IMG/VR virus record: IMGVR_UViG_3300002460_000024
Location: 1 to 64,000 of that record
Length of the DNA stretch: 64,000 nucleotides
Strand: one strand, 5' to 3'
Origin: a virus
The notes beneath the pieces are model-generated. The model was not told the origin of the DNA, did not search any database, and saw nothing but the letters and a program-made list of their open reading frames with translations. The position numbers were made by a program, and so were the translations under genes. Shown here piece after piece: positions 3,641-44,200 of this stretch (position 1 is its first letter; each line of letters starts with the position of its first letter).

Positions 3641-4425
3641 AAATGAAAGCAATCAAATCAAACGGAGTATTATTTCTAATTGGAATGATCTTCACAGGCC
3701 TAATAGCGTTCACTGCCTTAAATGGTATTCCTTTCCCTAGTTTTTAGGGGCGACGCAATTAATGTCAAGCGGCTACCTTAATCGGAGCCGCTTTTCTAGG
3801 TACAAACCATTAAATAAACTCACCATAACAGCTATGGAAAAGAAGATAATACAGACAACAGTCGGAGAGAATATTACAGTTGATAGACGTGAAATATTAA
3901 TCGACGACTTATTACAATGGATTGAAAAGGCGAAAGCTGAGAAAGCAACTCATCTCGAATTATATGCCACCTATGACTGGGATGATATGGATATAGATAT
4001 ATGGGCGTATTATAAATATGAAGAAACCGAAACTCAATGCGCAGAACGGTTACAGCGTGAACAAGATTATAAAAAGCAGCAGATATTAGAAAAGCTTGCT
4101 AAAGAAAAAATATTGTATGAAGAATTAAAGAAAAAATTTGAAGCATAACCCCTAAAATCCCGTCGCCCCATGAAAAACTTCTTTTATATAGTCAAAGTAA
4201 TAGAGTCATGCAATCTGCCCATTCAATTGGAGGCCTGCAGAACTATTATAAGCTGGTACAAAGAGCCTCAAGGTCGTAAATTATTAATGAGCCGGTGGGA
4301 AGATAAACTACATAGGCTAGAGAATTATGATTTAAGGCAGAGAGTAGTTTAATTTGTGACGGGATTAATCTCGTCACCCCAAAAATAGTATACGTTCATT
4401 TATAGGCTGAGTAGTTTAACAATTG

Positions 4426-7344: not shown

Positions 7345-7497
7345 GGAAAGGCTGTCAATATGCACTTCGATAAAAAGGAATTTAACGCAGACGGCAACTA
7401 TGTACCGAAGAAAACTCCGGTTCTCGGTATGCGCCAAAGAGAGGGCCATGTTATTGCTAAAGGCATTGATACCCAATCTACACAAGAAATTAACTAA
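7345..7497 (+). pseudogene. IS1595-family (ISXO2-like) transposase fragment
   Basis: Reads GKAVNMHFDKK...KKTPVLGMRQREGHVIAK, resembling the GGKxxNxH...KTPVxGMxxRxG segment of IS1595 DDE transposases. Confidence 0.6.
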
Positions 7498-7630
7498 ATA
7501 ATTTAGATTATGAATACAGATGTAAAAACAGTAGAATTAAGACAGGGATGTAAAGAGATTGAATACGGCATTGAAACCCAATTTACACTAAATAAAAGCT
7601 AAATAATTTAGATTATGAATACAGATGTAA
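7462..7630 (+). repeat. Two copies (7462-7525, 7567-7630) of a ~64-bp repeat; third copy at 17412-17475
   Basis: GGCATTGAWACCCAATYTACAC...AAATAATTTAGATTATGAATACAGATGTAA. Confidence 0.9.
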
Positions 7631-8849
7631 CAGACCCCGAAATAACCAACTTTGATTGGTTCGATATGAGTTCTATTGAGGCCACGACCGGTGAGCCGTT
7701 AACAGACAAACAAAAGTGGAAAATTATAACTTCTTTGGAAGCAATTGCCCTCCTTCCTCACCTCTTAACCAAAGAAGAGCAGATATTAGACCTTAAAAGA
7801 TTTTTATGGGCGTTCGGCCTTGTTGAGGGCGACTTTACCATTGAGGGGGTGCTCAAGGTAAATAATCCACTTTGAAGTATCAAAGTTTTTAAACTCGCAT
7901 TTTTGATTATTAATCTGTAGATAGACCTTTCCCTTTTCTTCAAAGGGATGGCCGCTGAGAAACTTTTTGGTATGGCGTAGAATAGCCCTTTTTTTCAAAG
8001 TCATTTAAAGCATCCCTAAAATTCCACTCTCCTCCCGTAATGGTGGTTCCGTCTGAAAATGTTATTCTATAATACTCATCCTTTAGGGTAATTTCGTGCG
8101 GTCTTAAAGCATCCCCTCTTTTTGTCCTCTTTCCAAAAAATCTTTTAAACCAGCCAAACTTAGCGTCTCCCCCAGTTGGTGTAGACTCATATATTGATAC
8201 CATAGTAATAATATTTACCCCAAATATAACCCTTTTATACTAAAATCTCGTCACCAATAAACAATAATACTACATTTGATACGTTTTTAGGGGTAACGCA
8301 ATTAATCTGAAATAATGAAACGTTCAATAAAATTCTGGATATTAATATTTATAGTTTTTAATATTCTTGTTACCGCCTTTGGATGGTATAAGATTCCCAC
8401 ATGGTTTAATGGACCCATTACGGCTGATAGTATTATGATTAGCCTTATGTATGTTTGTTTATACGCAATTGATGGTATGCTCCTATGTGTTTTACTTATG
8501 AATATTATTCCTAAATTTAATAAGTGGATAGATAAAAACAAAGCCCCAAAACATTAATCTCGTAGCATGATAGACTCTCCTCTCCCTCCTCATATAGAAG
8601 CCATGATGAACTGGCTCCTTGAATTATACTCTTCCAGGTCCCAGCTATATGGAGAATTAATACACCTGTGCGATCAGAAATTCGGGGAACCGTGTGAGTT
8701 TGCAAAAGCATTCCAAGATCAAGAAGAAGAAAAGGCAGCATTACAATGGTGGTCTTGCATTGAGTCGCTTTATGATTTAGAAAAGGCTCACATATTGGTG
8801 AGTAATTTAATTGGCAACGCCATTAATGTGAAAAAATGAGAATATTTAC

Positions 8850-8967
8850 TATATTTGCTGTGATTACTAATATTAACTATGCAAATACAAACTTTAAAAC
8901 CCCTTTGGCAAGATGCAGTAACATCCAAACGGTTGATATTGGTAATCCTTCTTGTCAGGGGGCTTTT
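8850..8967 (+). promoter_or_regulatory. Bacteroidota promoter plus leader attenuator upstream of the HNH gene
   Basis: TATATTTG at 8850-8857; 8862-8877 pairs with 8932-8947 inside the cccctttggcaaga/tcttgtcagggg-TTTT terminator. Confidence 0.7.
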
Positions 8968-8973
8968 AATTTT

Positions 8974-9531
8974 ATGAAGCCACACGAAAATTTTAGTTTA
9001 AAAGATATTCCCGGAGAAATTTGGAAAGATATTCCAGAATGGGAGGGCTTTTATCAAGTAAGTAATTTGGGACGAATTAAATCTTTAAAAAGAGTGGTGC
9101 CACACACACATACTGTATATTCTACACAAAAAGAAAAAATACTTAAACCGGCATCAGACAGGAAAGGATATAAATATATATGCTTATATCGAAACCATAT
9201 TAGTAAAATTAAGAAGGTCCACCGTTTAGTATTACTGGCATTTAAGCACGACTCCCCCTTAACAGTTAATCATATAAACGGTGTTGTAGATGACAATTCC
9301 TTAATAAACTTAGAATATTTATCTGCTATAGAAAACAGCAGGGCCTATCGTAGTTTAAGCAGAGAGTTACCTATGGGAGTTTATAAATATTTCAACAAAT
9401 ACATAGCAAAAATAAAAAGAAACAACAAAAATATTCATTTAGGAAGTTTTAATACAATACCAGAAGCTAAAAGCGCCTACGAAAAAGCCCGTACCCATGA
9501 ACCCACATCGCCAACAATCCATAGTAAATAA
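8974..9531 (+). CDS. NUMOD4-HNH-AP2 homing endonuclease
   Basis: EIWKDIPEWEGFYQVSNLGRIKS, VHRLV...VNHING..DDN..NLEY, HLGSFNT..EA..AY; start moved to the ATG at 8974 after the attenuator. Confidence 0.9.
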   Translation: MKPHENFSLKDIPGEIWKDIPEWEGFYQVSNLGRIKSLKRVVPHTHTVYSTQKEKILKPASDRKGYKYICLYRNHISKIKKVHRLVLLAFKHDSPLTVNHINGVVDDNSLINLEYLSAIENSRAYRSLSRELPMGVYKYFNKYIAKIKRNNKNIHLGSFNTIPEAKSAYEKARTHEPTSPTIHSK

Positions 9532-10024
9532 GCTCGGTTACGACCCTACGGTTAAGCCCAAAGTTGCCGTCGCATATCAGCTTTACAACACCAGAGTAAA
9601 CAAACTAATAATAACAGGATCTTACCCATTATGCAAGGCAATGATGAAGAAAGAGCAGCAACTAAACCCCCTGAGCACATACAGAATCCTACCCGTTTAT
9701 ACGTAGCCCATTTAGAAGGCCATTCATTTCGTTGCATAAAAGCCTTAGCCCCCTATGATACTGATATGCCAAAAGGAATGGCTGATAAGATTTGCGACGC
9801 AAACGTAAGATCCGACATTTTAGTTACTCCAGCCGTCAAAACCTACCTCATAAAGCACTTTGAAATCGAGAATGAAAAAGAACTGAACCACCTGGCAAAG
9901 AAATCAATCCAAAAAGCACTTTTATTTTTGTATAATATATAATAAATTTAATGGGCAATCGTTAACTTTATATGAGATTAATTACGTCGCCCATACGATT
10001 TGTTGCCTGTTGTGGTGGCATTCG

Positions 10025-10118
10025 GGCTAATGGATTGGGGCTTAACGAAGTTTGCTTTATACCAAAATTAAAAAATAGAAAAATGATAAAGCAAATTTTG
10101 TTTAAGCCCGTGTTAGCC
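10025..10118. repeat. attC-like hairpin 1
   Basis: ggctaat...gggcttaacgaagtttgcttta / taaagcaaattttgtttaagccc...gttagcc; one extra base in the right arm. Confidence 0.8.
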
Positions 10119-10188
10119 GTCTGTTTTTGTTTTATTATTTTTTGAGAGGGGAGAAAAAAAGTTTAAAAATTTTATTTAAAAAATACTT

Positions 10189-10911
10189 ATGAAAAACAAT
10201 TTAGAAAAGTGGAATTACTACTTGGAGTTACTGAATGAAAAGGCAAGTGCTTTTATGGACACGATAAATCCATTAGTGCCAAGCATTTTTTACAAAGTAG
10301 AGTTGAACGGCAAAATAAATGACTGCACCGTTTTAAACAGGCACTATTCATTTGGATTATACTTTAACGGCAAGAAGCCAACGAATAAGGACATTGAAAA
10401 AATTGAAGCCGTTTTTAATAGCGAAATAGTTTTTACACCGAAGATGGCTTACTTTGATTACTCCTATGTATGGGGCATTTATGAAGGCAAAGAAAGTATA
10501 TCTAAAACGGCTATACACGTAAAAGATGTTTTTGAAAATAGGATTGCGTTTTTATCTTTTGCAGAGGCGGAAATAAAGGCGAAAGAAATTATAGAAAAAA
10601 ATGCAGAGGAAAAACTATTTAAAGAAACGCACAAGAAGGATGCTAATTATAAATATACTGAAAATGGATACAAGTTTTTAGGATGGCAAAATGGATGGAA
10701 GCACGTTTACTTTGATGCTGATGGAAATGTAACAGATGACAAAACGAAGCAAAAAACATTTGGCTACCTGACTGCCGATTATCCTGAATATGGAAAATGC
10801 AGAGAGCAAAAGCATAGAACAATTGAAGTAAGCCACAACCAAAGAGGAAGTGAGAATACAGTTAGTTGCCCGATTTGTATGATATACTGGAAATATGATT
10901 GCAGCGACTAA
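10189..10911 (+). CDS. Cassette cargo, hypothetical protein with C-terminal Cys/His cluster
   Basis: 240-aa ORF; C..H...CPIC. Confidence 0.7.
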   Translation: MKNNLEKWNYYLELLNEKASAFMDTINPLVPSIFYKVELNGKINDCTVLNRHYSFGLYFNGKKPTNKDIEKIEAVFNSEIVFTPKMAYFDYSYVWGIYEGKESISKTAIHVKDVFENRIAFLSFAEAEIKAKEIIEKNAEEKLFKETHKKDANYKYTENGYKFLGWQNGWKHVYFDADGNVTDDKTKQKTFGYLTADYPEYGKCREQKHRTIEVSHNQRGSENTVSCPICMIYWKYDCSD

Positions 10912-11224
10912 CCTCTTAATTTTTTAAAAATAGGTGAGGGCCAAAAACTATGGGCGGCCTTTAGCGCCAAAGCCTGTGTTGCCCATAGCCTTAAATCACG
11001 AAAAAATTGAGTATGAAACTAAATAGGAAAGTAACATTAGAGCCAAAGACCATTAACCTAAGAGTTGAAGATAGAATGCTTAGTATTAATTATCGAATAC
11101 GGGATGACATTACAGGAATTGGATTTGGTGATACTTGGGTTAATTTTACTCCTAGCGATAAGTTGATTGAAATATTAAAAACAGAAGTAAACGAAGCAAT
11201 TAAAAACTATAAAAAATAAACACA

Positions 11225-11578
11225 ATGGGAAATTTAATTAAACACGCAAAGTTTGAACTTGAACTAGCTGATATGTTCAATGAAAAAGGAGATTTTTACG
11301 GAGGCATGACCGCTGGTGCAGTTATGGAATTGATTAAGGTTTTTGAGAAACAAGGACATTCTGGTGGTTCGGCTCCAGGAGTAATTGCTTTGTTTTCAAA
11401 ACTAGCAAACTATGAAATAATATTTAATAGGATGAAATCAGAAATTGAAAAACAATTTGGAGTTAAAATAACAGAAGCTCCATTTACATATTTAAGTAAT
11501 GTAAAAGAAAACGAACTTATTTTATCATGCCAAAAAGATTACAATAATATGATAATGGCTGTATTGACCCCAAATTAA
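11225..11578 (+). CDS. Cassette cargo, phage hypothetical protein (QGHSGGSA motif)
   Basis: HAKFELE...ELIKVFEKQGHSGGSA; flanked by ORFs 11007-11219 and 11585-11794. Confidence 0.6.
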   Translation: MGNLIKHAKFELELADMFNEKGDFYGGMTAGAVMELIKVFEKQGHSGGSAPGVIALFSKLANYEIIFNRMKSEIEKQFGVKITEAPFTYLSNVKENELILSCQKDYNNMIMAVLTPN

Positions 11579-11882
11579 ATTTATATGAGCTTGATAGAAT
11601 CAACTATTTTTCACGGAACTAAATACTCATTTGATAAGAGTAAATTAATCTTCGTTGGCTTTTCAGAAAACGGTCTTAACCTTGTTTTTGAAACAGCAGA
11701 AGTTGAAATTACTATTACCGATATGAAAGACAGAGAGAGGCAGTACAAGGATATTATTAATGTATGGAAAAGCTACAAAGGTGATTTATTTTAATTTTTA
11801 AAAAGCGTGCAGGCCAAATTAAAAAAAGTACTAAAGAAACGAGAGGGTGAGTTTAGCTCCTACCGAAATTGCTGGTTATTCG

Positions 11883-11976
11883 GGCTAACCTCCGAGGCTT
11901 TGCGTCAGTTTTAAAAATACCAATGAAAAAAAACAGAAAAGACATTTTTAAAATTGCGTTAAAGCCGATGTTATGC
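11883..11976. repeat. attC-like hairpin 2
   Basis: ggctaac...ggctttgcgtcagttttaaaaat / atttttaaaattgcgttaaagcc...gttatgc. Confidence 0.8.
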
Positions 11977-12023
11977 TTAGTATTTTTTATCATTTTTTGT
12001 GCGAGGGCTTTACCTAACTAACT

Positions 12024-12461
12024 ATGAAAGACAGAAACTTACCACATTCGGACAATTGGGCGACACCGCCTTATGTTTACGATAAACTTAATGAGGAATA
12101 CAATTTCAATTTCGACCCATGCCCTTTGAAGCATGATATCACGAAATGGGACGGATTGGAAATTGAATGGAAGGAACGGAATTTTATTAACCCGCCTTAT
12201 TCAAAGGATCTAAAACCAAAATTCATTTTAAAGGCGGTTGATGAAATGAAGAAAGGAAAACTTTGCGTGTTATTACTGCCCGTTTCGACAAGCACAAAAC
12301 TATTCCATGATATCATCTTGGCGAACGCAACAGAGCCAGTAAAGTTTTTCAAGGGCAGAATTAAGTTTATTGGACATAATACGAAGGGAGAATTGGTAAG
12401 TAACAAAAGCCCGATGCACGATAGTATGTTAGTTGTATTCGATGGGCGGGAAAAAAAATGA
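12024..12461 (+). CDS. Phage DNA N6-adenine methyltransferase (Dam-type), cassette cargo
   Basis: WATP, FDPCP, NPPY, LLLPVSTST..FH, GRIKF. Confidence 0.88.
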   Translation: MKDRNLPHSDNWATPPYVYDKLNEEYNFNFDPCPLKHDITKWDGLEIEWKERNFINPPYSKDLKPKFILKAVDEMKKGKLCVLLLPVSTSTKLFHDIILANATEPVKFFKGRIKFIGHNTKGELVSNKSPMHDSMLVVFDGREKK

Positions 12462-12474
12462 TAAAAAATATTGA

Positions 12475-12641
12475 GCATAACTCCGAGGCTTTGCGCTGAA
12501 TTTCCTCCCTGCGGGAGATTCCGCTTACCAAGGGATGTGCGAAGGACGGAAGATTGAAAGCAGGGAGGAAATTCATTTTTTAAAAATAGGTGAGGGCCAA
12601 AAACTATGGGCGGGCCTTTAGCGCCAAAGCCTGTGTTGCCC
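12475..12641. repeat. attC-like hairpin 3 (long frame C)
   Basis: gcataac...aggctttgcgct / agcgccaaagcct...gttgccc; inner stem tgaatttcctccctgc/gcagggaggaaattca. Confidence 0.8.
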
Positions 12642-12683
12642 ATAGCCTTAAATGCTAGATAAATAAATTTAAATAACGATAAT

Positions 12684-13537
12684 ATGCAGTATAGTCCAAA
12701 ATTGAAAAAAGCAGCAGAAGAAATAAAAGCAATACTTACGAAGTATGATATTGCTGGTGTTGTATTATTACATACTCCGGGGCATAGTGAATACTTATTA
12801 CGATTAGACCCGTCTTATTCATGTGCTAATATGAATGAGAAAACAGGCGAAGTAAGATTAAAAGCTACCGAGGCATTGCATGGTAAAAAGAAACGTGACC
12901 AAATGTTAGAAGATACTACAAATATGATTGTTTGTTTATCGGACGTAACCGCTATGCAGGCCATGAATCTTATTGAACTTCGTAAATTACTTGAAACTAA
13001 ATTTGAAATAATAACACAGGATAACGGGCATACCACCCATGATACACAAAACAATTAAAACAAAAATTATGAATGAAAAACAAATGCTACAGTCCGCAGT
13101 AAATGAACTTCGTGGATTAAGAAAACAAAACGAAATTATGAAAGCTCGTTTAGATATGTTCGATACTATGACAGCAATATTGCACACAGATATTGCAAGG
13201 CAAAACGGAGATGCAATGCACCCTGATATTGTTTATGAAATTGATAAATATTTAACTAACTTAGAAAAAGAAGCCACCAATGAAACCAATTAAATTTCCA
13301 GAGGTTAATAAAACCTACGCAGAAAATCAACCTGAATATTTGCCGTTGCCAGTATTTAAAGCAGATACCCCACAAGGCGAATGTGTTTCTTGCTGGAAAC
13401 TTTCTTTTCGTGAAAGGATTAGAATATTATTTACAGGCAAGTTGTGGGTAAGTCTGCTTACATTTAATAAGCCACTTACTCCTTCTTATTTTACAACGAA
13501 GAAATCGGAAGTATTAACCTTTTCAAAAAATGAGTAG
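12684..13537 (+). CDS. Three-gene cassette cargo (124, 84 and 85 aa hypothetical phage proteins)
   Basis: Overlapping ORFs 12684-13058, 13039-13293, 13280-13537. Confidence 0.65.
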
Positions 13538-13657
13538 CATTTTTAAGGGGATTTTTAAAAAAAGCATAGCCTCGGAGGTTGCCCACAAAGGCGTATGGCC
13601 AAGCACAGTAAAGCAAACGTTTTTCAGTTTGCGATGTGGTTGCCGTTTTAAGGTTGT

Positions 13658-13809
13658 GGGCAACGGTTTCGTGTTGCCGAAGTTGATGGCGAGAAGAAGG
13701 AATAAAGGGGCCTTTAGCGCCAAAGGCAATGCGGGTTTATTCGTTCTTTAAAAGCCAGAAACAAGGTCAAACTTTCATCCCATCAATTTTGAGCAACACA
13801 TTGATAGGC
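13658..13809. repeat. attC-like hairpin 4 (long frame A), GAT core
   Basis: gggcaac...gtgttgccgaagttgatgg / ccatcaattttgagcaacac...gataggc. Confidence 0.82.
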
Positions 13810-13950
13810 TAAGTTTACCGGGGGAGTTGCAGATACCTTTAGAAAGTTTGTCACGAAACCGATAGGCTAAATTTAGGATGAGAGGTTTGAAAATTAATTG
13901 GCGAAATTTTGTAAAAATTTAAAAAGTAAACTAATAAATAAACGAAAAGT

Positions 13951-14250
13951 ATGGGATTATTCAGTAAAACACCTAAAGTAGAATTGCTACCGTTAGGCCA
14001 TAAAGTAGAATTAGGTACTCGATTTTGGAAAGTTTTTGAAAGCAAAGTTTATGAATGTCATGTTGCAAGACTTTCAATAAGCCGTTCTGATGAATTATTT
14101 TTATCGCAGAACCCAAGTAGTAATTATGATGAAACAAAGTATTTAATTCATACTATTTGCGACAAGCATGTTGGTTGGTTTCACGAAGAGGAAGTGGTTA
14201 AGATGATAAAGTTTAAAACAAAAAAAGAACTTTATGAAAGTGATAACTAA
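13951..14250 (+). CDS. Cassette cargo, hypothetical protein
   Basis: 99-aa ORF inside frame A. Confidence 0.65.
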   Translation: MGLFSKTPKVELLPLGHKVELGTRFWKVFESKVYECHVARLSISRSDELFLSQNPSSNYDETKYLIHTICDKHVGWFHEEEVVKMIKFKTKKELYESDN

Positions 14251-14336
14251 ACCTTTTAGCAGCTATGCTGCCCCGCCAATTCTTTTTTTAAACAGAGCAG
14301 CCGTGTGCGGTTTTGGGTTGTGGAGAGGTAAATTTA

Positions 14337-14415
14337 GCCTATCGTTGACGGGTATGCGTTCGGTTTTGCTCCAAAAAATAACACGGCAAAACTGACGACA
14401 TACCCGATGTTACAG
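14337..14415. repeat. attC-like hairpin 5
   Basis: gcctatc...cgggtatgcgttcggttttgc / gcaaaactgacgacatacccg...gttacag. Confidence 0.82.
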
Positions 14416-14469
14416 GCAGTTAAAAATGGCTAAACGAAAATTAATATAAACAACTAAAACAAAACAACT

Positions 14470-14754
14470 ATGTGTACAGTATCAATGATTGGAGACCACT
14501 TCAATGACAAATGGAAACAACCATTTTATCAGCAAACTTTTACCAACATTCCCGAAATTACGAAGGCGGAATTTGATGCACTCAAAAAGGAAGTTGAAGA
14601 AATGAAAGCATTGCTAAAGAGAGCAAAGTTATATGACGAAAAGAATGGAGAACCGAATTGCGAAATGGATGAGAAGATGACAATGCTTAGAAAATTTGCC
14701 GAAGCAGTTGGTATAAGTTTGGACGACATCATTAAGAAACCAGATGCCAAATAG
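14470..14754 (+). CDS. Cassette cargo, phage hypothetical protein (MCTVSMIGD start)
   Basis: 94 aa; the stop codon lies in the terminal inverted arm of the cassette. Confidence 0.75.
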   Translation: MCTVSMIGDHFNDKWKQPFYQQTFTNIPEITKAEFDALKKEVEEMKALLKRAKLYDEKNGEPNCEMDEKMTMLRKFAEAVGISLDDIIKKPDAK

Positions 14755-14768
14755 CCATTTTTTATTGC

Positions 14769-14898
14769 CTGTAACCGGACAAGCCTTTATTTAGTGCGGG
14801 CTTAAAAGCACTAAGCAACAATTAAAGATAAAAGATTATGGAAAGCACAAAAGTTGATAATAGCACAGAACCCGCATTGAATAAAGGCATTGTTAGCA
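14769..14898. repeat. attC-like hairpin 6
   Basis: ctgtaac...gcctttatttagtgcggg / cccgcattgaataaaggc...gttagca. Confidence 0.85.
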
Positions 14899-15074
14899 GC
14901 AGTACGGCATTAGAACCGAAAGTTGTTAATCACGGGAATGTGTTTGGAACAAAGAACTGGTACACATTTTATTGCCCACATTGTGGAAGCCAAATAACAA
15001 ACAGAAGTGCAAATTGCGAAGGAAGTTATCCAATTAAAGGATGTAATGGGGCAATAAAATGGAACGAGAAGTAG
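14838..15074 (+). CDS. Cassette cargo, small Zn-ribbon protein starting inside the hairpin loop
   Basis: CPHC...C...C; ATG at 14838 lies between the arms of hairpin 6. Confidence 0.7.
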   Translation: MESTKVDNSTEPALNKGIVSSSTALEPKVVNHGNVFGTKNWYTFYCPHCGSQITNRSANCEGSYPIKGCNGAIKWNEK

Positions 15075-15080
15075 TATTGC

Positions 15081-15915
15081 TGCTAACGGCTGCGGAATAA
15101 CAGCAGTTTCTTTAGTACGTTTTAATTTTAAGGTGGGATTTTAAAAATAAATTATATGAATGGAAAAAGTTTAAAAGTTCAGAAAGCTGAAAAGTTTGTA
15201 GATGATTTTATTAAATCAGAAGGGCATACGCCCACCTACAATGATGTAAAAGAATACATGGGCTTTAAGAGCAATGCTCAAGCCTATGGTATTTGTGCAA
15301 AATTCAGAGATAAAATGAAGGCAATTACTAAAAACGAAAAGAGAATACATATTGAGATTGATGATGAAAACCAAATTATGGTTAGCCGAAAAGGATTTAA
15401 CAACTACGAGGCACTTGGAGTTTTAGAGGCTACCGTTTTGATGGTTAAAAATGAAATATTAATAAGTATAAACAAGGGTAAATAATTATGAATCAGTTAG
15501 ACATAATAAAAGAAGAACTCGAAGATTGCTATGATTTATGGAGTAGATTTAGTTGTGACTGCCTTCATTATTATATGCTATATCTTGAAAAAAGGAAACG
15601 TCAATTAGAAATCATAAACAATTAAATGTATGTACTACCATAACACTACTAAAAACCTATTAAACGAATCAGAGTTTGAAGATTTCTACTGGAACTACGA
15701 GGAAGGGGATTCAATCTTTAAAACGGAACGTGGAAATGCAATACTTATACCAATGACCTACGAGGAGGTAATTGAAAAGGCAAAGCATGATAATATAGTC
15801 GAAGAATAGTTCTTTTAATTTTTAAAAAGCGGGATGGCCAAATTAAAAAAAGTACTAAAGAAACGAGAGGGTGAGTTTAGCTACTACCGAAATTGCTGGT
15901 TATTCAGTGTTAGCC
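15081..15915. repeat. attC-like hairpin 7 (long frame B) with a gene-containing loop
   Basis: tgctaac...gaataacagcagtttc (15095-15110) / gaaattgctggttattc (15889-15905)...gttagcc. Confidence 0.75.
15156..15485 (+). CDS. LexA-N-like winged-helix DNA-binding protein (cassette cargo)
   Basis: FIKSEGHTPTYNDVKEYMGFKS; followed by small ORFs 15488-15625 and 15630-15809. Confidence 0.6.
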   Translation: MNGKSLKVQKAEKFVDDFIKSEGHTPTYNDVKEYMGFKSNAQAYGICAKFRDKMKAITKNEKRIHIEIDDENQIMVSRKGFNNYEALGVLEATVLMVKNEILISINKGK

Positions 15916-16060
15916 TGAGTGCCATGCTAATAGGTGAACGCAAAGCTAAACGAACAAGGAGTTGGCTTATTCCGCAGCCGTTAGCCCGAATCGGGTTGGC
16001 GCAACAAAGTAAAGTCCTCCATTTTAGAGGACGATTTGTTGCCTGTTGTGGTGGCATTCG

Positions 16061-16211
16061 GGCTAACGGTTTCGTGTTGCCGAAGTTGATGGCGAGAAGA
16101 AGGAATAAAGGGGGCTGTGCGGCCAAAGGCTTGCGGGTTTATTCGTTCTTTAAAAGCCAGAAACAAGGTCAAACTTTCATCCCATCAATTTTGTGCAACA
16201 CATTGATAGGC
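16061..16211. repeat. attC-like hairpin 8 (second copy of frame A)
   Basis: Near-identical to 13664-13809 starting exactly at AAC. Confidence 0.85.
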
Positions 16212-16335
16212 GAAGTTTACCGGGGCCGTTGCAGATACCTAAAGAAAGTTTGTCACGAAACCGATAGGCTAAATTTAGGATGCGAGGTTTAAAAATTAAT
16301 TGGCGAAATTTTGAAAAAATTTAAAATTTAAATAT

Positions 16336-16871
16336 ATGAGTACAGAAAACATAGAACAATGCCCAGAGTTTCCATACTTCGGAGCCTCTTATCCTGATGC
16401 AAGATGTGTAAGTGGATATTTACACGATATGGATAGCTGTGATGAACATGGTAATTTATATGTAATGAGTGAAAGTCACCCATGCCCATTTTGTAATACA
16501 AAAGAATTTTTAAAAAACCAACGGGACAATGAGGCTGATATGACCAAAGTGAAAAAATGGATGGAAAATATTAAAAACGAATATAGCTATAAATAATTAT
16601 GAAAGACTTATTAAAGCTCCTATGGGAAAAGAAATGGGAAGCCGATGAAGAATATACTAAAAATGCAAATAGATATTCAGAAGGCAAAAGTGATGCTTTT
16701 TTATTTTGCATAAATGAAATTCAACATCCAAAATGTAAAGCGGATATTAAAGTTTTGGTGAATGGAAGGGTGGGTTATACTACCTCTGTTGTGGCTCATT
16801 CGGGGGGTATATACCCAGTATGGTTTGATGGTGGCGTGGAGTTTGTAAATGCTAAAGACGTAACCTTTTAA
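16336..16871 (+). CDS. Two-gene cassette cargo (86-aa Cys-rich and 90-aa hypothetical proteins)
   Basis: ORFs 16336-16596 and 16599-16871. Confidence 0.65.
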
Positions 16872-16948
16872 CAGCTATGCTGTACCGCCAATTCTTTTTT
16901 TTAACAGAGCAGCCGTGTGTGACTTTGGGTTGTGGGGAGGTAAATTTA

Positions 16949-17040
16949 GCCTATCATATATCTGTATTTATCACAATGCAACATATTTAAAAACAGTACG
17001 TTAAATACGGTATATTTCAAACAATGAAAAAACGATTGTA
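16949..17040. other. attI-like junction
   Basis: The last core site, gcctat^c, is followed by AT-rich DNA with no hairpin and then the recombinase ATG. Confidence 0.55.
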
Positions 17041-17436
17041 ATGAATATAGATAGATGGTCAGAGCAATTCGAGAAGGATATGCAAGTAATTCGTAATAGC
17101 CAAAGCACCCGTGATAATTATGGGTGCCAGGTTAAAATGTTTTTGGCATACTTTGAAAAACTCAACTACACTTCTCCTGAAAGAATTAATGCGGAAAAGA
17201 TAAAAGATTATTTGCTTACAAAAATTAGCAATAACAATCAGCGTCACGCCCATTCTGCTATAAAACATTTCTATAAAATTACAGTTCACCAGGAGCTTAA
17301 GTTTAGATTTATTCAATATGCGGAAAAAGAGAAGAGGCATCCCATAATTTTAAGCAGGGAGGAAACTAAAAGATGGTTTGAGGCGTGTACTAATGTAAAG
17401 CATAAGTGCATGGCATTGAAACCCAATTTACACTAA
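17041..17436 (+). pseudogene. Truncated tyrosine recombinase (integron-integrase/Xer-like N-terminal SAM domain)
   Basis: RNSQSTRDNY, IKDYL, SAIKHFYK, KRHPIILSREE, NVKHK; cut at 17412 by the 64-bp repeat before the catalytic R-H-R-Y residues. Confidence 0.85.
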
Positions 17437-17475
17437 ACAAAAAGCAAATAATTTAGATTATGAATACAGATGTAA
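17412..17475 (+). repeat. Third copy of the 64-bp GGCATTG repeat
   Basis: Matches 7567-7630; supplies the MNTDV start of ORF 17460-17708. Confidence 0.9.
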
Positions 17476-18084
17476 AAAAAGAGGTTAAAACAATAGAAGT
17501 GATTATACCACCAGACACAGACGAGGCAGTTCATATAATAAGATTAATTTTCCCCAATGGGTATAATGTTGCAATGACCCCAAATGCTTTAAAGGAGGTT
17601 ATAAATGAGCATTCCGAGAAATATGGGGTTATAATTGATGATGATATGAATAGAGAGAAATTTGATATGATTTTAAAAGAAAGACGCCTCTCCGCTTCTA
17701 AGGATTAGTCCTGTCTATTTCTTATTATTTCAATTCCATCGTATAGCTCTTGAAAGAATAATTCGGGGAGGATATGCACATACTTAAATATAATTTTTAC
17801 GTCATCTCCCTTCTCCTCTATCAAATCCGCATATTACATATTCAGCCGTGCCAATATCTATTTTATCCTCCTCAGAAATAAATAGAATATCCTCGTAAGG
17901 ATATGAGTATATGAATTCATGGAGAAGAGTTTTTGTAATCGTGTTGTAGTCGGGCCTCTCTTCAATAATTTTTAGATTATTAAAACGAATATTATGACTT
18001 TTACTTACAGAATCGAACGAATACTCGACAATGCTATCTGGGAATAAATTGCATATATTCTTTAAATAATTGTATATCAGTAAT

Positions 18085-34968: not shown

Positions 34969-35370
34969 TCATATCACTGCGAATATATCTGTTTGACTCA
35001 TTAATAAAAGATCTTTACCTTCTAAAGTAACCTCTACTCCAGCGTGTTTAGCGTATAAAACTACATCTCCTACTTCTAGGGGGGCGACGCCACCTTTCCC
35101 AGGACCCACAGCAACTACAAGCCCTTTCATTGGTTTTTCTCTTGCACTTTCTGGTAAGACTAACCCATTTCCGAGAGCTATTTCTCCTTCAATTGGTTCA
35201 ATAACTATCTTGTCGAATAAAGGTCGGGTTACGCCGGATGATTGACGTCGCCAATTCTCAGCAAACTCGTCTAACCCTAATGCGCCAACCTCAAACGTCG
35301 TTCCTGGTGCGCAGAGTACACTTAAATATTCTTCAAACTTCATTCTAATATTCTTTAGGTTTAGGATCAC
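34969..35370 (-). CDS. groES: GroES co-chaperonin with N-terminal extension
   Basis: RPLFDKIVIEP...GLVLPESAREKP..G.VVAVGPG...GDVVLYAKHAG. Confidence 0.92.
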   Translation of the reverse strand: MILNLKNIRMKFEEYLSVLCAPGTTFEVGALGLDEFAENWRRQSSGVTRPLFDKIVIEPIEGEIALGNGLVLPESAREKPMKGLVVAVGPGKGGVAPLEVGDVVLYAKHAGVEVTLEGKDLLLMSQTDIFAVI

Positions 35371-36934
35371 TTACAACACACTCCGTAGTTAAGAAAATAG
35401 CTGCAATAGATGAAGCATTCTCAAGGGCGCACCGACATACTTTTGTTGGGTCGATTACTCCGGCATCAAAAAGATTTTCGATCTTATCAGACTTTACATT
35501 AAAACCAATACCGTAATCGCCTTCAATAATTTCTTTTGCTATGGAATCAATTTGCTCTTTAGACTTTCCAGCATTGCGAAGTATCTGGTCAAACGGTTCT
35601 ATAATTGAACTTCGAACAATCAGGGCTCCGGTTAATTCGTCTCCAGTAATACCTAGTGTTGTGAAAAAATCTAAACTTTTCATAAATGCCGTACCACCTC
35701 CAGACAAATATCCTTCCTCATTCGCCGCCCTGGTAGCACACAAAGCGTCATCAATACGATCTTTTTTCTCTGTAGCTTCTGTTTGGGTGATGGCTCCTAC
35801 TTTTAGCGACGCGATCTTTCCTATCATCTTTGCTAGTCTACTTTTTAACTTAGCTGCCTGGACCTCGTTAGCCCCCTCAATTTCGGTACGGATCTCGTCG
35901 CACCTCTCGGTAACAGATAGCCCATCACCGGCCCCATTCACAAATAATGTTGAATGAGCATCCACAATAACTTTCTCCGCACTACCACAATCTTTTAAAG
36001 TTGCCTTTTCAATTGTTCGTCCTGCGGCATCAGAGATAAAAGTAGCTCCAGTTAAAACACAAATATCTTCAAGTGCCCGTTGGCGATCATCCCCGTATTC
36101 GGGAGCTAGCACCACGCATAAATTAATTTTGGCTTCCTTCATATTACCGTAAATTAACTGCAAAGCCTCGCCCTCAATCCGATCTACAATCAATAAAATA
36201 GGCTTTGGTTGGTTTACCGCTTTTTCTAAAAACGGCAATAACTCTTTATATGTAGATAGTTTTTTATCGGTGACGAGAATAATCGGGTGTTCAAATTCAC
36301 AGGTACGTCTTTTTGTGTTGATATAAATAGGATGCATTAATCCACGATCAATCTTCATTCCATTCACTATCTCTACGTAGGTTTCATGGGTTTTTGAATC
36401 GGTGACGTTAATTTCCCCTTCTTTACCTACCTGAGTGAAGGCGTCGGCAATAAGTTTTCCTATTTCGGGATCGTTATTGGCCGATATGGTAGCAATTTGT
36501 ATTAATGTTTCCTGGCTGTCTACATCTTTTGATAATTCTTTTAGCCTTTTTACGACGGCATCTGTAGCCTTCTCAATTCCTTTTTTAAGGTCCACTGGAT
36601 TGGCGCCTTCGTCGATAGCCTTTAGTCCAGCGGTGATGATGGCTTGAGCAAGAACAGTGCTACAAGTGGTCCCATCTCCGGCATCGGCTAATGTTTTAAA
36701 GGCCACCTCCTTAATTAGGGTGGCTCCCATATTTTGAATTGGCTCTACTAAAGTGATTCCTTTTGCTACAGTAGCTCCATCTTTTGAGATGTGAACAGGT
36801 CCGTAACCGTTGCCTATTAAGACATTCCGACCACCAAATCCCATTGTAACTTTAATTGCGTCGGCCACAATATCCACTCCTATTTTTACTTTGTCTCTAC
36901 CTTCCTTGTTTTGAGTAACGTTTTTAAATGACAT
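35345..36934 (-). CDS. groEL: GroEL chaperonin
   Basis: KDGATVAK, AGDGTTCS, GVIDPTKV; lacks the GGM tail. Confidence 0.97.
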   Translation of the reverse strand: MSFKNVTQNKEGRDKVKIGVDIVADAIKVTMGFGGRNVLIGNGYGPVHISKDGATVAKGITLVEPIQNMGATLIKEVAFKTLADAGDGTTCSTVLAQAIITAGLKAIDEGANPVDLKKGIEKATDAVVKRLKELSKDVDSQETLIQIATISANNDPEIGKLIADAFTQVGKEGEINVTDSKTHETYVEIVNGMKIDRGLMHPIYINTKRRTCEFEHPIILVTDKKLSTYKELLPFLEKAVNQPKPILLIVDRIEGEALQLIYGNMKEAKINLCVVLAPEYGDDRQRALEDICVLTGATFISDAAGRTIEKATLKDCGSAEKVIVDAHSTLFVNGAGDGLSVTERCDEIRTEIEGANEVQAAKLKSRLAKMIGKIASLKVGAITQTEATEKKDRIDDALCATRAANEEGYLSGGGTAFMKSLDFFTTLGITGDELTGALIVRSSIIEPFDQILRNAGKSKEQIDSIAKEIIEGDYGIGFNVKSDKIENLFDAGVIDPTKVCRCALENASSIAAIFLTTECVVSDPKPKEY

Positions 36935-38287: not shown

Positions 38288-41200
38288 TCATTCTTCGATA
38301 TCTTCTAATTCAATTTCAGGGACATATTTAATCCAATCCATATCTTTCACATTGTATTTTATACCGTATTCGCTGCTAATTCGGTAATAAGAAATAGTGG
38401 CCGCATCCTTTTTGGTGATCTTAATTACCTTCTCCCTTTCGTCATCCCCAATTTCTTCATATTCTACCTCATGGTAATCTAATAGATCCTCTATTTTTTC
38501 GTCATCATTTAAAGTCTCGTTTAGCATTTTATACCACTCTCTACCGGCCATTGCTTTATAGACATACTGCTGATTCTCTGTTGTAGGTAGGGCGACGCCA
38601 TTTTCGTCATATAATTTTAAGTCCGAAAACTGACCTATTTTCTTAGTCAAATTTAAACTGGCAAGCTTTTTCCATACCGGATCGCCGCCCTGTAGCCCAA
38701 ACCAATGTTTAAGCGGTAAAAATTGCTCACCCGGATATGTTTTTATGGGAAATCCAAATACATCTAATTTCGGTTTATCCAGGTTCCATCCATTATAAGC
38801 GGCATACTTCATAATATCTTCGAAAGTATCTACCTTATATTCATACTTCGAGAAAATATCATCAATTTGGGTAACTAAAGTAGTATTTTGAGGTAATGGC
38901 TTAGTCATATAGCCCAGGGCTGTCTTTAAGAACTCCATTCCCTTTTTCTCTACCCCATTAATCCGATCATCAAAAACAGTTGTTACTAATTTATTAACAC
39001 CCTGTACAAATGATTTTTCAAGAAAAGTATTTTTAGAAGATAGTACCGACATAAATAATTTCTCATTTGCCCCTTTGCCCTCCTTCCATCTATGCAAGTC
39101 CATATAATTACCAACAATAGTCAGAGGAATATCTAGAGCAGGAATTAGTCTATATGGCAGCCAATGACCACCAATTCTAATATTTCCTTTAGGATAGGTG
39201 TTTTCCATATTGGCCGACTGCTCATAATTTAATCCTGCGTGACTGCCGACAATTATAATCTTATCCTGATCATCATCATCCATATCCATTTGAGACATCA
39301 TAATCGCTGCCAGAGTAGTAAAGGCGCCCATACCAACCCACGCCCTACCCATTTGATCATAATATGCTTTTGATCCCCTTTCTCCCATTTGAGTTGATCT
39401 AATATCCTTATGCATATATGATAACGGCCCCTTAATTTTCTCAGCAAGTCCGGTTATTCCCAATCCATTAGCCCGAAGCATTCCATAAACCGGTGTATAA
39501 TCCACCATGTAATTAAACACGTTCGAAACAATCTTGGTAAATGGAACATATAACCTAGATACTACTCCAATTGGGTTTTTAGACTGAGTAACGGTTGATA
39601 ACATGTAAGCAGCCATTCCAATACCTCCGCGATAATCCCCGCGATATACCATTGTTTCTGCTGATTCCTTTGCTTCTGCCACAGCCTCTTCATTCCTTCC
39701 GGCCCTTAATATTTCTATTAATCGGATCGTTTTTTGCGACACGGTTAATGTATTGCCGGTAATCTTTTCATACACCTCGGCTTCTTTTAGCATCTGTGTT
39801 GTAGCTGCCCCACGATCATTACCCCCTATAATCTCGTTATAAACAGCCTCGTAAAGATCCTTTCCGGTTAATCCCTTTTCTACAAACTGCCTTCTAACAG
39901 AGGAAATAAACTCCGATTCCTCATTAGTCCTAAAAAATAAGGCATCTTGGGCCTGGAGCATTCTGCCTACATATTTATAAAACTCCACATATTTCAGGAC
40001 TGGAATATTAGCTATCCTTTTATCCTCTAGGGGAGACATTTCAACTTTTGAGCCTCCTTGAAATTGTCGATCGGCAAACTTATCGTCTAACATTCCATGT
40101 TGTAGAATATCCAAAATCTCATTAAAAGTCATTTGCCGGTTATTCTTTATGCCCTTGAAATAATAAATGGGCTTCATAATGGTTTCGGCTAATGGGCTCC
40201 CATACAAAAATACTTTCGGATCTTTATTTTTAATGGCATCTTTTAATGCTTTGAAGTAAAGTGATGGGTTTAGTGGATTCTCAATATACTTCGCTGCTAC
40301 GTTAGCTGCATTATTGGTGATGTTTATAGTAGAGGTCGATAATCCAGATAGCATCGATGAATACCAAAGCGCCCAATATATTTCCATACCGGAGGCTCCA
40401 TACATACCTGATATGCTCTGTACTAGTTGTTGAATAGCTCTTTCCTTAAATTTACCCTCTGTTTTTTGTACCGCCTCTGAGTACTTTAAAATATTCTCAA
40501 TTTGCCTCTCGCTCAAAGACTTTACCCCAAATCTTTCTCCAAAATACTCTAATAAAACCTTCTCGTCTACTAAACCATTTAGATTCAAAGTCTCATTAAT
40601 CTTGCTGATTACAGAGTTTTTATCTCGCTTTGCTTCCTTCATTTCTTCGGTAACTTTACCCCTCTCTTCCAGTTTACCAAAATACTTTTCAACCAGCTTT
40701 ATAGCGCCCCCTTTGGTTATTTTATTAAACTCCTCTTCAATAGCAATAGCAAGCTCATTAGCTGTTTGCCCTGTTACGCCGGCATCCTTTACTAATCGAT
40801 CGATTAGCTCCTGCTTTGTTTCGTTTCTTTCTGTGAAATGCGACGTAATTATCCCATCAATCTTTTTACTTCTCTCACGCAAGGCTTGTTTTACAGAACT
40901 TTCAACATCTTCAATCGGATTCTTAACTTCAACGGTAATAAATTCCTGAACCTTATCATATACGCCCTCGAAGTGCTTTGCTAATTTATCCTCATCAAAA
41001 GAAACATTTCCCATTTGGGCTTTTACATAAGCAATTGCTTTTTGAACAGAAGCACTTAACTTAACCCCCTCTTTAATGGCTTTAATCATTATTTTCACTG
41101 CGCCCTGAATAATCCCTGGTGGAATAAACGTAGCCGCCATAAACCCCTCCATGCCACCGAGATTCTTGTCAGCCCATTTATCTATAGCTGCAAGTTTCCT

Positions 41201-44200
41201 GCGGGTTTGCTCGTCAATATCTTTTTGAGTATCGCTTAAAACCTTCTCTCCTTTAATTTTCTTTATCCTTTCTGAACCGATTACCTGTTTGGCTGCACCC
41301 CTTTGAGCTCCCTTATATCCTTGGGTGGCTCTGGTGAATTTGCGACGTCGTTTTTGGCCTTTTGGAGATTCATTATATCTTTTTATGGCTCTTTGTACTG
41401 ATAATAACACCGCTTCTGGTGTCATTTTATTCCAAAGTGCCATTATCTGACCACCCTGGCCCGATAAACTCATCCTTTCTCCCACCGCTTCGGATAACTT
41501 TACCACCTTATCTAAAAGTTTAGCCCTATCCTTTCCTTCGGTCTTGGCCGCTTCCTGACCATAATAATCCATCAAGACTAATCCTAATGTATTCGCCATT
41601 AAATTATCTTGAATTGATACATTTCGGTCCATGGCTAATTCTTCTGCCTCTTCAACTCCATATTCGTCAATAAACCCCTGAGCTAATTGAACTGATTCTT
41701 TATTAGTTACCTCTTGGTAAAATAATGGGTCTTTATCCAAAAGGGCTTTTACTTCTTTCTTTCCTTCGTTTTTACGGGCAGTCTTACTTAACCCACGCTC
41801 CTTTTTCTTAAATTTCTTTCCACTGGCCTCTTTAATCTGAACCGCCATTTGTTTTTCAACCAACTTTTTATTTTCATCGGAGAGGTCCTTGTACTGTTTT
41901 GGGCCCTTATCTGAATTAAGCCATTTAATTGCATCAGCAATGCCATCGATCACTTTACCTCCGGCCTCTACGGTTTGGGCTGCTATCTCTATTGCTGCTG
42001 CATACCAATCGTTTGTGGTAATATCTATTTCTACATCATTACCATTCTCATCCTTAATGGTAAGGGTTTTCTTTTTAGGTGCCAGCTTCCTGATATTATC
42101 AGCTATCTCCTTTGTGGCTTTAGTGGCGACGCCAACTTTGGGCTCCTTTGTTTCACGTGAAACCTCCTTAACCGGCTCTTTTGTCTTCTTTACTGGTTCA
42201 CTTTTCTTGCTTTTAATATTTACACCCGTAACCTTTTTATACTGATCCTCTAGCGCCCTTAATGTAAGTTCGCGCTGCTTCTTGTACTGGTGGGGTCCAC
42301 CGCCATATTTTTCTATAAAGGCAATAATTTCCTTTACTTTAACACCCGCTTGTTGTGCTATGGTATCTAATGGAAGGGCTTTCGAAGAAAACCACCCAAC
42401 AGCCGACACAGATCCGTCTTTTACTTTGTTTGGCTCTCCCTCCTGGTTATAATCTTTCGCCTGCACTCCGTTTTGAGAAACAGCCTCAAATATTTTATTT
42501 TCTGTATCCACTTCATCCCGAATTCTTACTTTCTCGTTCTCCCAGGCCTCTTTAATTTGGGTAGGGTTGGTAGAAGTTTCGGCTATCTCGTCAGCCTTGT
42601 CGGTTTCAGCCATTGGGCCTTCTTCCACACCCGCCTCCAATCTTTCCTGATCGTACTTTTTAATCTTCGAAGATTCAAGATAAACCGTTCCTTTTGGGGG
42701 TGTTTTTTTAGTTTTGACGCGATTTTTGGTAACAAACTTTTGAGTTTCTACCTTATTGCCGGCAGCATCACGCCTAACAATCTCGTCGCCCTCCCGAACA
42801 TACCTTACTTTACTATCAGAAGATTCGAACACTGTACCTTGTTTAAGTTCAGCAAACTTGGCCGATACCTCATCCATGGTAATATCCTCACCGTCATAAT
42901 CCTTCATTTGCCCCTGTTCGTCAACATAGAACACAGAGTTTAATAACTCCCTTTCTTCTGGAGTGGGTAATGGGTCACCCCTATCAGTAAAATGGGTATC
43001 TATTAATTCCGCTTCTTTTTGGTTCCTTTCGGATTCGGACAATACCTCTTCCTCTGAAAGAGTGGTTTCCGGATAATCTATTTCTTCCGGGAGAACCACT
43101 CCACTTGGCTCAGTCGTTTCTCCGCTTGTTCCTTCGTTAAGTTTGGCTGGCTCAAGGCTTTGTTCGTTTTGGACATCACTTGATATCCCTGTTTTGTTTT
43201 CACTATCATATAATTCGGTTATTTGTTTTAATACTGTTTCATCATTGATGACGCTAAAGTTGGTGCCTCCCGATCTAATATCGGCCATCACTTCCGGCTT
43301 TGCCATCTCAGCCATAAATATCTCTTTTGGATAAGAATTCTTACCTATAAAATACATAGGCGCCTTACCAGCCACCACTTCCTGAACATTCTTCTCCATA
43401 TCCTTAATCTGGATATCATAAGTTTTCAACAGGGTTAGGTCCGTGGTATTAGCCTTTAATTTCTCCAGAGCATTAATATCGTCGAGCTTACTCATAATAA
43501 CATGCTTCTGAGGGGCACTTAAATTTGCTGGTATCTCTCTGCCCTTCAAAAATGCAAACTCCAATATCCCCATAGCTTCCAAATACCCTGGTTCATCTAT
43601 ATCTCCCCTACTCTTCAAAAGCTCAAGCCCCGCTTTGTTTTGCTTATAGGTTTTTTCCATATCGGGACCCTCCATTAGCATATCATACATGGTGGCCAAT
43701 TGATACTTTGATTCTGTGCCGGTATTCTTTGCGGTGAGGTCTGGTGCTGCCATTCCGAAAGACATTGCAAACCCTACCATAAATTCATTGGTTCCCGTAG
43801 GACTGTTTAATCTATCAAGGAAGGTTTGGTATGGGTTATGCGACGCGATTCTTCCCTGGTCCACTTCCTGCAGACCCTCCGTTATACCCTCTCCGGGTGC
43901 CTTAATCAGTGCAGATTTGAACCCTCTGGCCTTACCTAATTTCGTAAAGGCAAACATCATCTGCCCTATATTTATTGCTAAATAATTTAGATTTTGGGTA
44001 AAGGTGTCGGCAGTGTTTTTGGCGGCAACCTCTACGGCTACCCCATTTTGAAGTTGTGAATTAAAATCAGAACCCGCTTCAATAGTGGCATCAAACACCG
44101 TATTTACAACACCTGCAGTAATTCCAGAAGCTACCGTTCCTTCTATCCCTGCACCAACCACTCCGCCAGCCGCACCACCAGTTACTAGTGATCCACCTAT

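Follow-up and report, generated by a model that had tools for sequence, protein, structure and literature searches.

Two copies of a long non-coding frame enclose unrelated genes in a probable integron-like array of a phage

This study concerns two long non-coding frames, K1 and K2, that enclose unrelated genes in a 64,000-nt stretch of viral DNA, and the array of hairpin sites to which both belong. The stretch, called the window throughout, is the first 64 kb of a linear 74.8-kb virus record in IMG/VR (IMGVR_UViG_3300002460_000024). K1 and K2 are probably cassettes 4 and 9 of an integron-like array that extends from about 10025 to 16955 in the early region of the phage, in which case the frames are the non-coding chassis of one cassette type. 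The evidence was observed directly. It consists of the frame repeats, a regular architecture of boxes and hairpins, a chain of complementary arms that joins 9/9 consecutive sites, a strand bias in folding, an association with a recombinase gene in three other phages, and one pair of arms that holds three different cargos in three phages.

Structure of the K frames

The window was compared with itself using BLASTN. The left repeat aligns 13658-13930 with 16060-16332 (274 nt, 93.1% identity, E 5e-112), and the right repeat aligns 14250-14343 with 16862-16955 (94 nt, 91.5% identity, E 1e-31). The frame repeats are direct and 2.4 kb apart, and exactly two copies of the frame are present in the whole 74.8-kb record. 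An initial annotation of the sequence had described about 260 bp of homology on the left and about 85 bp on the right around unrelated cargo. Both parts of that description were confirmed, since the 99-aa open reading frame (ORF) of K1 has no similarity to the 86-aa and 90-aa ORFs of K2 by BLASTP or BLASTN. The homology between the units ends short of the ATG, by about 20 nt in unit 1 and by 4 nt in unit 2, and restarts at the stop codon.

Unless stated otherwise, all features below are on the + strand. The K1 cargo (13951-14250) is the 99-aa ORF, which has no family match; the exact protein was found on 15 contigs. The K2 cargo (16336-16871) comprises an 86-aa zinc-ribbon-like ORF (phrog_20542, 16336-16596) and the 90-aa ORF (16599-16871). 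A homologue of the 86-aa ORF in a related phage, L128, sits in a frame unlike that of K2.

Each K frame is a large cassette chassis, composed of a 162-nt site, a leader of 110–130 nt and a trailer of 76 nt that ends in an arm pairing back to the site. The site consists of an AAC box, a 130-nt hairpin and a 17-nt arm containing GTTTACC, and is 96% identical between K1 and K2. The K1 site (13658-13819) has its hairpin at 13671-13800 and GTTTACC inside the arm at 13802-13819, and its left box pairs with 12635-12652. The K2 site occupies 16061-16221, and the 40 nt that precede it are shared with the flank of another hairpin site, site A (9995-10036). Both left frame boundaries coincide with an AAC box, GGGCAAC at 13658 in K1 and GGCTAAC at 16061 in K2. 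Together with 9–11 bases on their 5' side, these boxes pair with the preceding GTT arms at 16/18 positions for K1 and 14/16 for K2.

The K1 leader (13820-13950) contains a second, 16-nt copy of the arm (13860-13875) followed by AATTGGCG at 13896-13903, and the homology with K2 stops at about 13930. The K1 trailer (14251-14344) contains CGCCAATT at 14274-14281 and an arm with GGTAAAT at 14327-14344, with homology to K2 as far as 14343. The K2 leader (16222-16335) is built in the same way, with an arm copy at 16263-16277 and AATTGGCG at 16298-16305, as is the K2 trailer (16862-16955), with CGCCAATT at 16886-16893 and an arm at 16939-16955. In unit 1 both 13803-13819 and 13860-13875 pair with 14327-14344 to form an inverted repeat of 16–17 nt. 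In unit 2 the segment 16263-16277 pairs with 16941-16955.

The initial annotation had placed the cargo between AATTGGCG and CGCCAATT. That pair is indeed present in both units. As an 8-mer pair alone it is weak, and the significant pairing is the inverted repeat of 16–17 nt. The annotation had also enclosed the cargo of another unit ("frame C") in a similar pair, which exists at 12646-12657 and 13535-13548. The partner is probably not the relevant one, because the left sequence belongs to a better pairing (16/18) between 12635-12652 and 13647-13664. In a fold model in which the trailer was joined to the site as a circle, GGTAAAC paired with GTTTACC around the site hairpin. In the same model AATTGGCG/CGCCAATT closed the whole non-coding part of the chassis, with z -4.5 for K2 and z -2.6 for K1.

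Two short sequences within the K sites recur elsewhere. A 23-nt part of the hairpin stem (13672-13694 and 16075-16097) is found unchanged within a GNAT acetyltransferase gene on two low-GC bacterial metagenome contigs (L149 and L150). The match might reflect an origin from a host gene fragment, or coincidence, the chance expectation being ~0.03 by our estimate. The 17-mer GGCCTTTAGCGCCAAAG, a small hairpin, is found at 10956-10972, 12613-12629 and 13709-13725, three copies in three different spacer modules. Its expectation is 0.18 matches at up to 3 mismatches, and it was absent from IMG/VR in an exact search.

The array, its relatives and its genomic setting

The array at 10025-16955 comprises nine cassettes and ten sites, each with a left box of the form xxxxAAC and a right box of the form GTTxxxx. 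Between these boxes the general layout is a long imperfect hairpin, set off from the left box by a short unpaired spacer and from the right box by another short spacer. Neighbouring sites are linked by complementarity between the right arm of one and the left arm of the following site, and 9/9 consecutive links show it. In order along the array the matches are 7/7, 29/33, 16/18, 6/7, 22/24, 13/14, 17/18, 14/16 and 6/7, and six of the nine links are 13–29 nt long. Long-range inverted repeats were also sought by an unbiased search (at least 15 matches, 150–1500 nt apart). Seven were found in 5 kb (11.9-17.0 kb), compared with 54 in 1.34 Mb of other phage loci, a density per kb about 35-fold higher. 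Each of the seven brackets one ORF or tight ORF group, and 3/5 independent repeats, found without reference to the boxes, start with GTT and end with AAC.

Sites A, C, D, F and G, together with the two K sites, have an attC-like form, an imperfect hairpin with AAC and GTT boxes, and their fold z scores range from -2.6 to -5.3. The structured strand was examined in two ways. Mismatches in the arms, read from the arm alignments, comprise 9 G.T on the + strand, 0 A.C and 2 others. Local folds of the + strand are 56.9 kcal/mol more stable than those of the - strand, while composition-matched shuffles gave 32.1 ± 10.4 kcal/mol and 0/100 reached the observed value. The wobble bias towards G.T and the excess in fold stability therefore identify the coding strand as the structured strand.

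The first hairpin, site A (10025-10118), has the boxes GGCTAAT and GTTAGCC and an A-rich loop with an ATG (-27.5 kcal/mol, z -4.9). Its right box is complementary to the left box of site C at 7/7 positions. Cassette 1 contains module B (10916-10996), in which the right half of site D, with its GTTGCCC box and extension, is repeated on its own. Module B is 97.6% identical to 12572-12653 and is probably a relic half-site. Site C (11883-11976; GGCTAAC ... GTTATGC) has a stem that covaries with site A, and the related phage G404 has a site homologous to its right arm (L169:2693-2822). Cassette 2 forms a loop (11970-12481) whose 29-nt arms, 11970-11998 and 12453-12481, are 93% matched with both mismatches G.T on the + strand. 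The loop encloses a Dam-type methylase ORF (12024-12461; Pfam PF05869). Site D (12475-12641; GCATAAC ... GTTGCCC) is 167 nt long with a branched top (-66.7 kcal/mol, z -5.1), and its 16/18 link leads to the K1 site.

Downstream of K1 lies the hairpin of site F (14345-14415), with the right box GTTACAG, a fold z of -4.3 and a 22/24 link to site G. Site G (14769-14898; CTGTAAC ... GTTAGCA) has a stem of 17–20 bp and carries the ATG of a 78-aa ORF (14838) in its loop. The cassette 6 loop (14889-15087) is closed by arms at 14889-14907 and 15072-15087 that recur in other phages around different genes. Site H (15081-15112; TGCTAAC ... GTTTCTT) is very short, and its halves pair downstream, 15082-15100 with 15967-15985 and 15106-15123 with 15847-15864. 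Site I1 (15858-15915; AAGAAAC ... GTTAGCC) folds weakly and is followed by a cassette without an ORF that extends to 16060. A module at 15810-15905 is 95% identical to 11786-11881.

Some smaller features of the array were also seen. The loops of sites A and C (10083-10145 and 11925-12023) contain an ATG that opens a hydrophobic ORF of 20 and 32 aa, respectively, with ...FIIF-like ends. These short ORFs read through the right arm of the hairpin, and the one in site C stops just before the methylase ATG at 12024. The palindrome TTTTTAAAAA is found at 10922, 11793, 12577, 13553 and 15817 (also at 9080), directly 3' of array stop codons and with GGCCAA 8–10 nt further on.

Several related phages carry comparable sites. 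Four hairpins of the form ...TAAC-spacer-stem...stem-spacer-GTTA... were read by eye in L011, which was found via its Dam methylase, and 3/3 consecutive links among them match at 7/7 positions. G404 is a complete 74.5-kb phage that shares a methylase, GroEL and recombinase with the window phage at the protein level only. It carries the site homologous to site C, and its N6_N4 methylase is closed by GTTATGC... and ...GCATAAC arms. The AAC box of these arms precedes an intact recombinase gene (277 aa) by 52 nt, and in L128 an AAC box lies 50 nt 5' of one that encodes 298 aa. In all, three other phages have such a box 50–52 nt before a full-length copy of the gene.

The arms of cassette 6 link the window with L128 and L037. 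They recur identically in L128 at 3998-4016 and 4325-4340, where they enclose the homologue of the K2 86-aa ORF instead of the 78-aa ORF of the window. In L037 the same arm pair, at 1360-1373 and 2031-2044 and with one compensatory double change from A.T to G.C, encloses a 245-aa TRM-like methyltransferase. One arm pair thus holds three unrelated genes in three phages. The hairpins upstream, including site G of the window, differ in sequence and retain their pairing, with 9/23 pairs changed on both sides. In all three phages the ORF has its start codon in the A-rich loop of the hairpin, and the right arm codes for the first 20-odd residues.

The L037 copy of the arm pair lies in a 1022-nt insertion (L037:1238-2259) with a hairpin site, the methyltransferase cassette and a second small ORF. 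The insertion is absent from its close relative L039 and replaced by 965 nt in L040. The reuse of one arm pair around three unrelated genes indicates that accessory genes, including methylases, travel from phage to phage as cassettes. In the related loci L013-L148, indel junctions are at gene boundaries, not boxes. Relatives found via the Dam methylase (at most 79% aa identity) and via a 240-aa protein (at most 58%) are too distant for comparison of non-coding DNA.

K2 is the cassette next to the recombinase gene. The array is followed by a spacer (16956-17040) with an ATGCAAC box at 16976-16982, 58 nt before the ATG of a recombinase gene. The geometry is like that of L128 and G404, and by analogy the spacer is a possible attI-like junction. 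The tyrosine recombinase gene itself is a fragment (17041-17436) that encodes 131 aa. It has the N-terminal SAM-like domain only (Pfam PF13495) and stops just before the first catalytic Arg. The best NCBIfam match of the fragment is the integron integrase model TIGR02249, far under its cut-off. Full-length relatives are Xer-like proteins of 267–312 aa that score 115–175 bits with TIGR02249 (cut-off 265), with the match split in two stretches. Their best model is the XerA-like NF040815, also under its cut-off, and they miss the cut-off of every curated model. An insertion in the catalytic domain specific to IntI has been described as essential for the integrase (PMC8138268). The recombinase gene is co-directional with the ORFs in the window, L128 and G404.

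The break in the recombinase gene coincides with one copy of a repeat block of 64–70 nt, which is present at 17412-17481, 7462-7531 and 7567-7630 with 86–94% identity and holds the start region of a small ORF. The copy at 17412 starts at the break point. Because the break coincides with a repeat also found at 7462 and 7567, the sequence suggests that the gene was cut by a deletion through recombination at this repeat and is dead. No close relative of the fragment was found in IMG/VR. A search of GTDB genomes gave two distant loci only, and cultured phages plus 301 Flavobacteriaceae genomes gave only generic integrases (29–38%).

The region 3.7-17.7 kb of the window is a series of small + strand ORFs. 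The remainder contains larger genes on the - strand, including GroEL, a RecE-like exonuclease and an Erf-like annealing protein. The same DNA is present in groundwater and soil metagenome runs. A Bacteroidota host is plausible for the phage, because the nearest relative of the recombinase within a named genome sits in a Flavobacterium metagenome-assembled genome. Just 5' of the array, at 8836-9531, a 231-aa ORF has HNH/NUMOD-like homing-endonuclease motifs, as read from its translation. Elsewhere, a GroEL-like chaperonin is encoded at 35345-36934 and a single 2939-aa ORF at 38288-47107 (- strand). The left end of the record (1-110) carries short tandem or direct repeats spaced by about 21–60 nt (self-BLAST 4-49/64-109 and 1-26/85-110).

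Possible roles and origins of the frames

On a single strand, each ORF group forms the loop of a long-range stem between successive sites. If K1 and K2 are integron-like cassettes, the small Xer-like recombinase family would recombine these sites on folded single-stranded DNA, like IntI with attC, with crossover at the AAC box. An AA|C crossover is favoured by the homology breakpoints at AAC boxes and by the strand bias, while G|TT is favoured by the K arm that extends past the box. The two K units may then have arisen by duplication of the chassis followed by ORF replacement, or the long flanks may have allowed exchange with a related cassette by homologous recombination.

A number of observations weigh against this reading. 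The recombinase gene of the window is dead and no recombination event was observed. Frame and cargo meet at ORF edges, not at AAC/GTT boxes. The two K copies, 93% alike, show no covariation between them. In the strong 17-nt K arms the GTT and AAT triplets are at the inner end, while the other links have GTT and AAC at their outer ends. The K homology extends 11 nt beyond the putative AA|T crossover, and therefore either crossover model leaves one boundary unexplained. The folds of sites H, I1 and the last site are not significant. Folding of the coding strand suits a function in single-stranded DNA and in RNA equally well. Finally, about 14 pairs as good as a 7-nt link are expected by chance in 7 kb (our estimate), and the A-to-C link and the two 6/7 links that leave the K sites are weak. 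Therefore, we placed weight on the six links of 13–29 nt, the unbroken order of the chain, and the 3/5 long-range repeats that start with GTT and end with AAC.

The elements could instead act in RNA. Hairpins and long-range stems in an early polycistronic mRNA would loop out each cistron and expose its start codon in an A-rich loop, for processing, stability or initiation independent of Shine-Dalgarno sequences. The frames would then be shared untranslated-region modules. It is the coding strand that folds, with wobble mismatches of the G.U type only. An A-rich hairpin loop contains the start codon at sites A, C and G, as it does in L128, L037 and G404, and no Shine-Dalgarno sequences are visible 5' of the ORFs in the array region. 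However, AAC and GTT triplets are conserved at the helix ends, and the arms are identical letter for letter across phages in which hairpins and cargo differ, which is a better fit to a DNA site recognised by a protein than to a merely structural stem. The arrays also stop 50–59 nt 5' of a tyrosine recombinase gene in three or four phages, and there was no match to an Rfam family. We felt that a role confined to RNA was unlikely.

Segmental duplication with gene replacement by the homologous recombination system of the phage, like the PeSL modules of T4 and without site-specific recombination, appeared to be just as unlikely. The phage encodes the RecE-like exonuclease and Erf-like annealing protein, the frames provide direct repeats of 274 and 94 nt at a distance of 2.4 kb, and further intergenic modules have been duplicated too. 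The cargo breakpoints at ORF edges are like those of mosaic phages, and for PeSLs both such shuffling and the formation of mini-circles have been documented (PMC2839356). On the other hand, signals of the PeSL type were not enriched in the array, with 31 promoter-like sites versus 28.6 ± 5.3 in shuffles and 5 terminator-like sites versus 5.5. The Bacteroidota promoter motif TAnnTTTG was not found in the spacers, and no promoter was identified. Duplication also leaves the 9/9 chain of boxes, the strand bias and the recombinase association unexplained.

A more elaborate role for the K chassis, as a composite recombination module of about 370 nt in which ORFs are exchanged precisely at the closing stem AATTGGCG/CGCCAATT, seemed to us a long shot. 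In the circular form of such a cassette the site hairpin, the three 17-nt arm copies and the closing stem would make one closed domain. If this were true, K1 and K2 would be snapshots of a phage integron-like system loading new genes into a ready-made cassette.

The initial annotation had gone further and proposed that the long frame serves again and again as a scaffold, taking new genes into a loop and so generating cassettes. Part of this stood up to analysis. Complementary arms do close loops, and the same arms hold different genes, both in K1 and K2 and in the window, L128 and L037. The frames enclose unrelated ORFs in the same chassis with breakpoints tight to the ORFs, and in the circle-joined model the cargo is inside the stem that closes the non-coding part into one domain. 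The production of cassettes by the frames was not supported. The annotation had proposed BLASTN of the frames against phage and Bacteroidota genomes as a measure of cargo diversity, and this yielded no third copy and no further cargo. No K frame was found in INPHARED or in at least 139 phage loci by blastn, and 401 Flavobacteriaceae genomes gave only AT-rich low-complexity matches. Four exact patterns retrieved none from IMG/VR, where two matches were chance occurrences inside coding DNA. One pattern scan of metagenomes returned only the 23-nt identity within the GNAT acetyltransferase gene of two related bacterial contigs. There was no empty frame in the collections searched. The sole associated enzyme is a dead recombinase, a site family shared by different genes is ordinary in integron arrays, and a single duplication plus a single replacement would account equally well for two copies that are 7% apart. 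For these reasons we regard a cassette-making scaffold as very improbable.

The remaining candidates were rejected. The frames are not protein-coding, since the ORFs that cross them (13530-13751 and 15834-16292) have their common reading frame broken by a 1-nt indel; no known RNA family, ribozyme or group I/II intron was found in the 64-kb window at the Rfam 15 gathering score, only chance-level matches appeared between 9000 and 18000 when E values up to 5 were allowed, and no ORF is split between the flanks; and a miniature inverted-repeat transposable element or an insertion-sequence-like element does not fit two copies whose 17-nt repeat is terminal on the right only, being 145 and 203 nt inside the left end, with no target duplication seen at the unit ends.

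Comparison with known systems

Gene capture of the integron type relies on the IntI integrase and has been described chiefly in the chromosomes and plasmids of bacteria. The array is similar to integrons and to clusters of attC sites lacking integron integrases (CALINs) in that small accessory genes lie between imperfect hairpin sites closed by ...AAC and GTT... boxes. Each unit begins with a sequence that can pair with the far box of the unit's own site, a chain rule that holds for 9/9 links here and 3/3 in L011. The tyrosine recombinase gene at one end, the methylase cassettes and a site family common to unrelated ORFs are further points of likeness. In virulent phages, among them a Polaribacter phage, attC clusters that lack an integrase are already on record, and several hold methylase cassettes (PMC9892861). 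IntI1 recombined 5/6 of the phage attC sites tested (Qi et al. 2023, PMC9892861).

The array differs from integrons in its enzyme, its orientation and its dimensions. The recombinase is Xer-like, about 280 aa long and under every curated IntI cut-off. In the window it is truncated. No integrase of the IntI type was found there. Its gene points the same way as the ORFs, while the integron integrase gene is divergent and carries the Pc promoter. The ORFs of the array are on the folding strand, whereas integron ORFs are on the top strand and the bottom strand folds. Complementary arms are 13–29 nt long in the array and 6–7 nt in integrons. Several array ORFs start within a hairpin loop, and the K sites are 162 nt long with long conserved flanks.

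In sedentary chromosomal integrons, for example the Vibrio cholerae repeats, near-identical attC sites are found on unrelated ORFs. This is the classical case of the same frame with different cargo and the basis of the question of how cassettes originate. There, one attC site of about 120 nt follows each ORF, in tens to hundreds of copies. In the K units, by contrast, the shared part flanks the ORF on both sides, totals about 370 nt and exists in two copies only. How an ORF comes by a recombination site is a question for which the chassis, with its two copies, offers a small natural test case; it raises the question rather than answering it.

The PeSLs of T4-type phages are also repeated intergenic stem-loop modules that flank non-essential ORFs in a hyperplastic early region, and recombination between the repeats can swap or excise ORFs (Arbiol et al. 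2010, PMC2839356; Comeau et al. 2014, PMC4122927). They differ in having a strong sigma-70-like promoter and a terminator and in depending on homologous recombination, while the array has box complementarity and a link to a recombinase. The DUF1874 motif is likewise a multi-stem element, repeated in one intergenic region after another (Weinberg et al. 2017, PMC5737381). The possibility that it is an attC site of unusual complexity was discussed in that paper, and no recombinase was reported for it (PMC5737381). The window has no sequence or covariance-model match to this motif.

If read as integron-like, the array is a well-resolved phage example of integron box-and-hairpin logic. It is set apart by a small Xer-like recombinase, genes on the folding strand, long pairing arms, and some gene starts inside the loop of a site.

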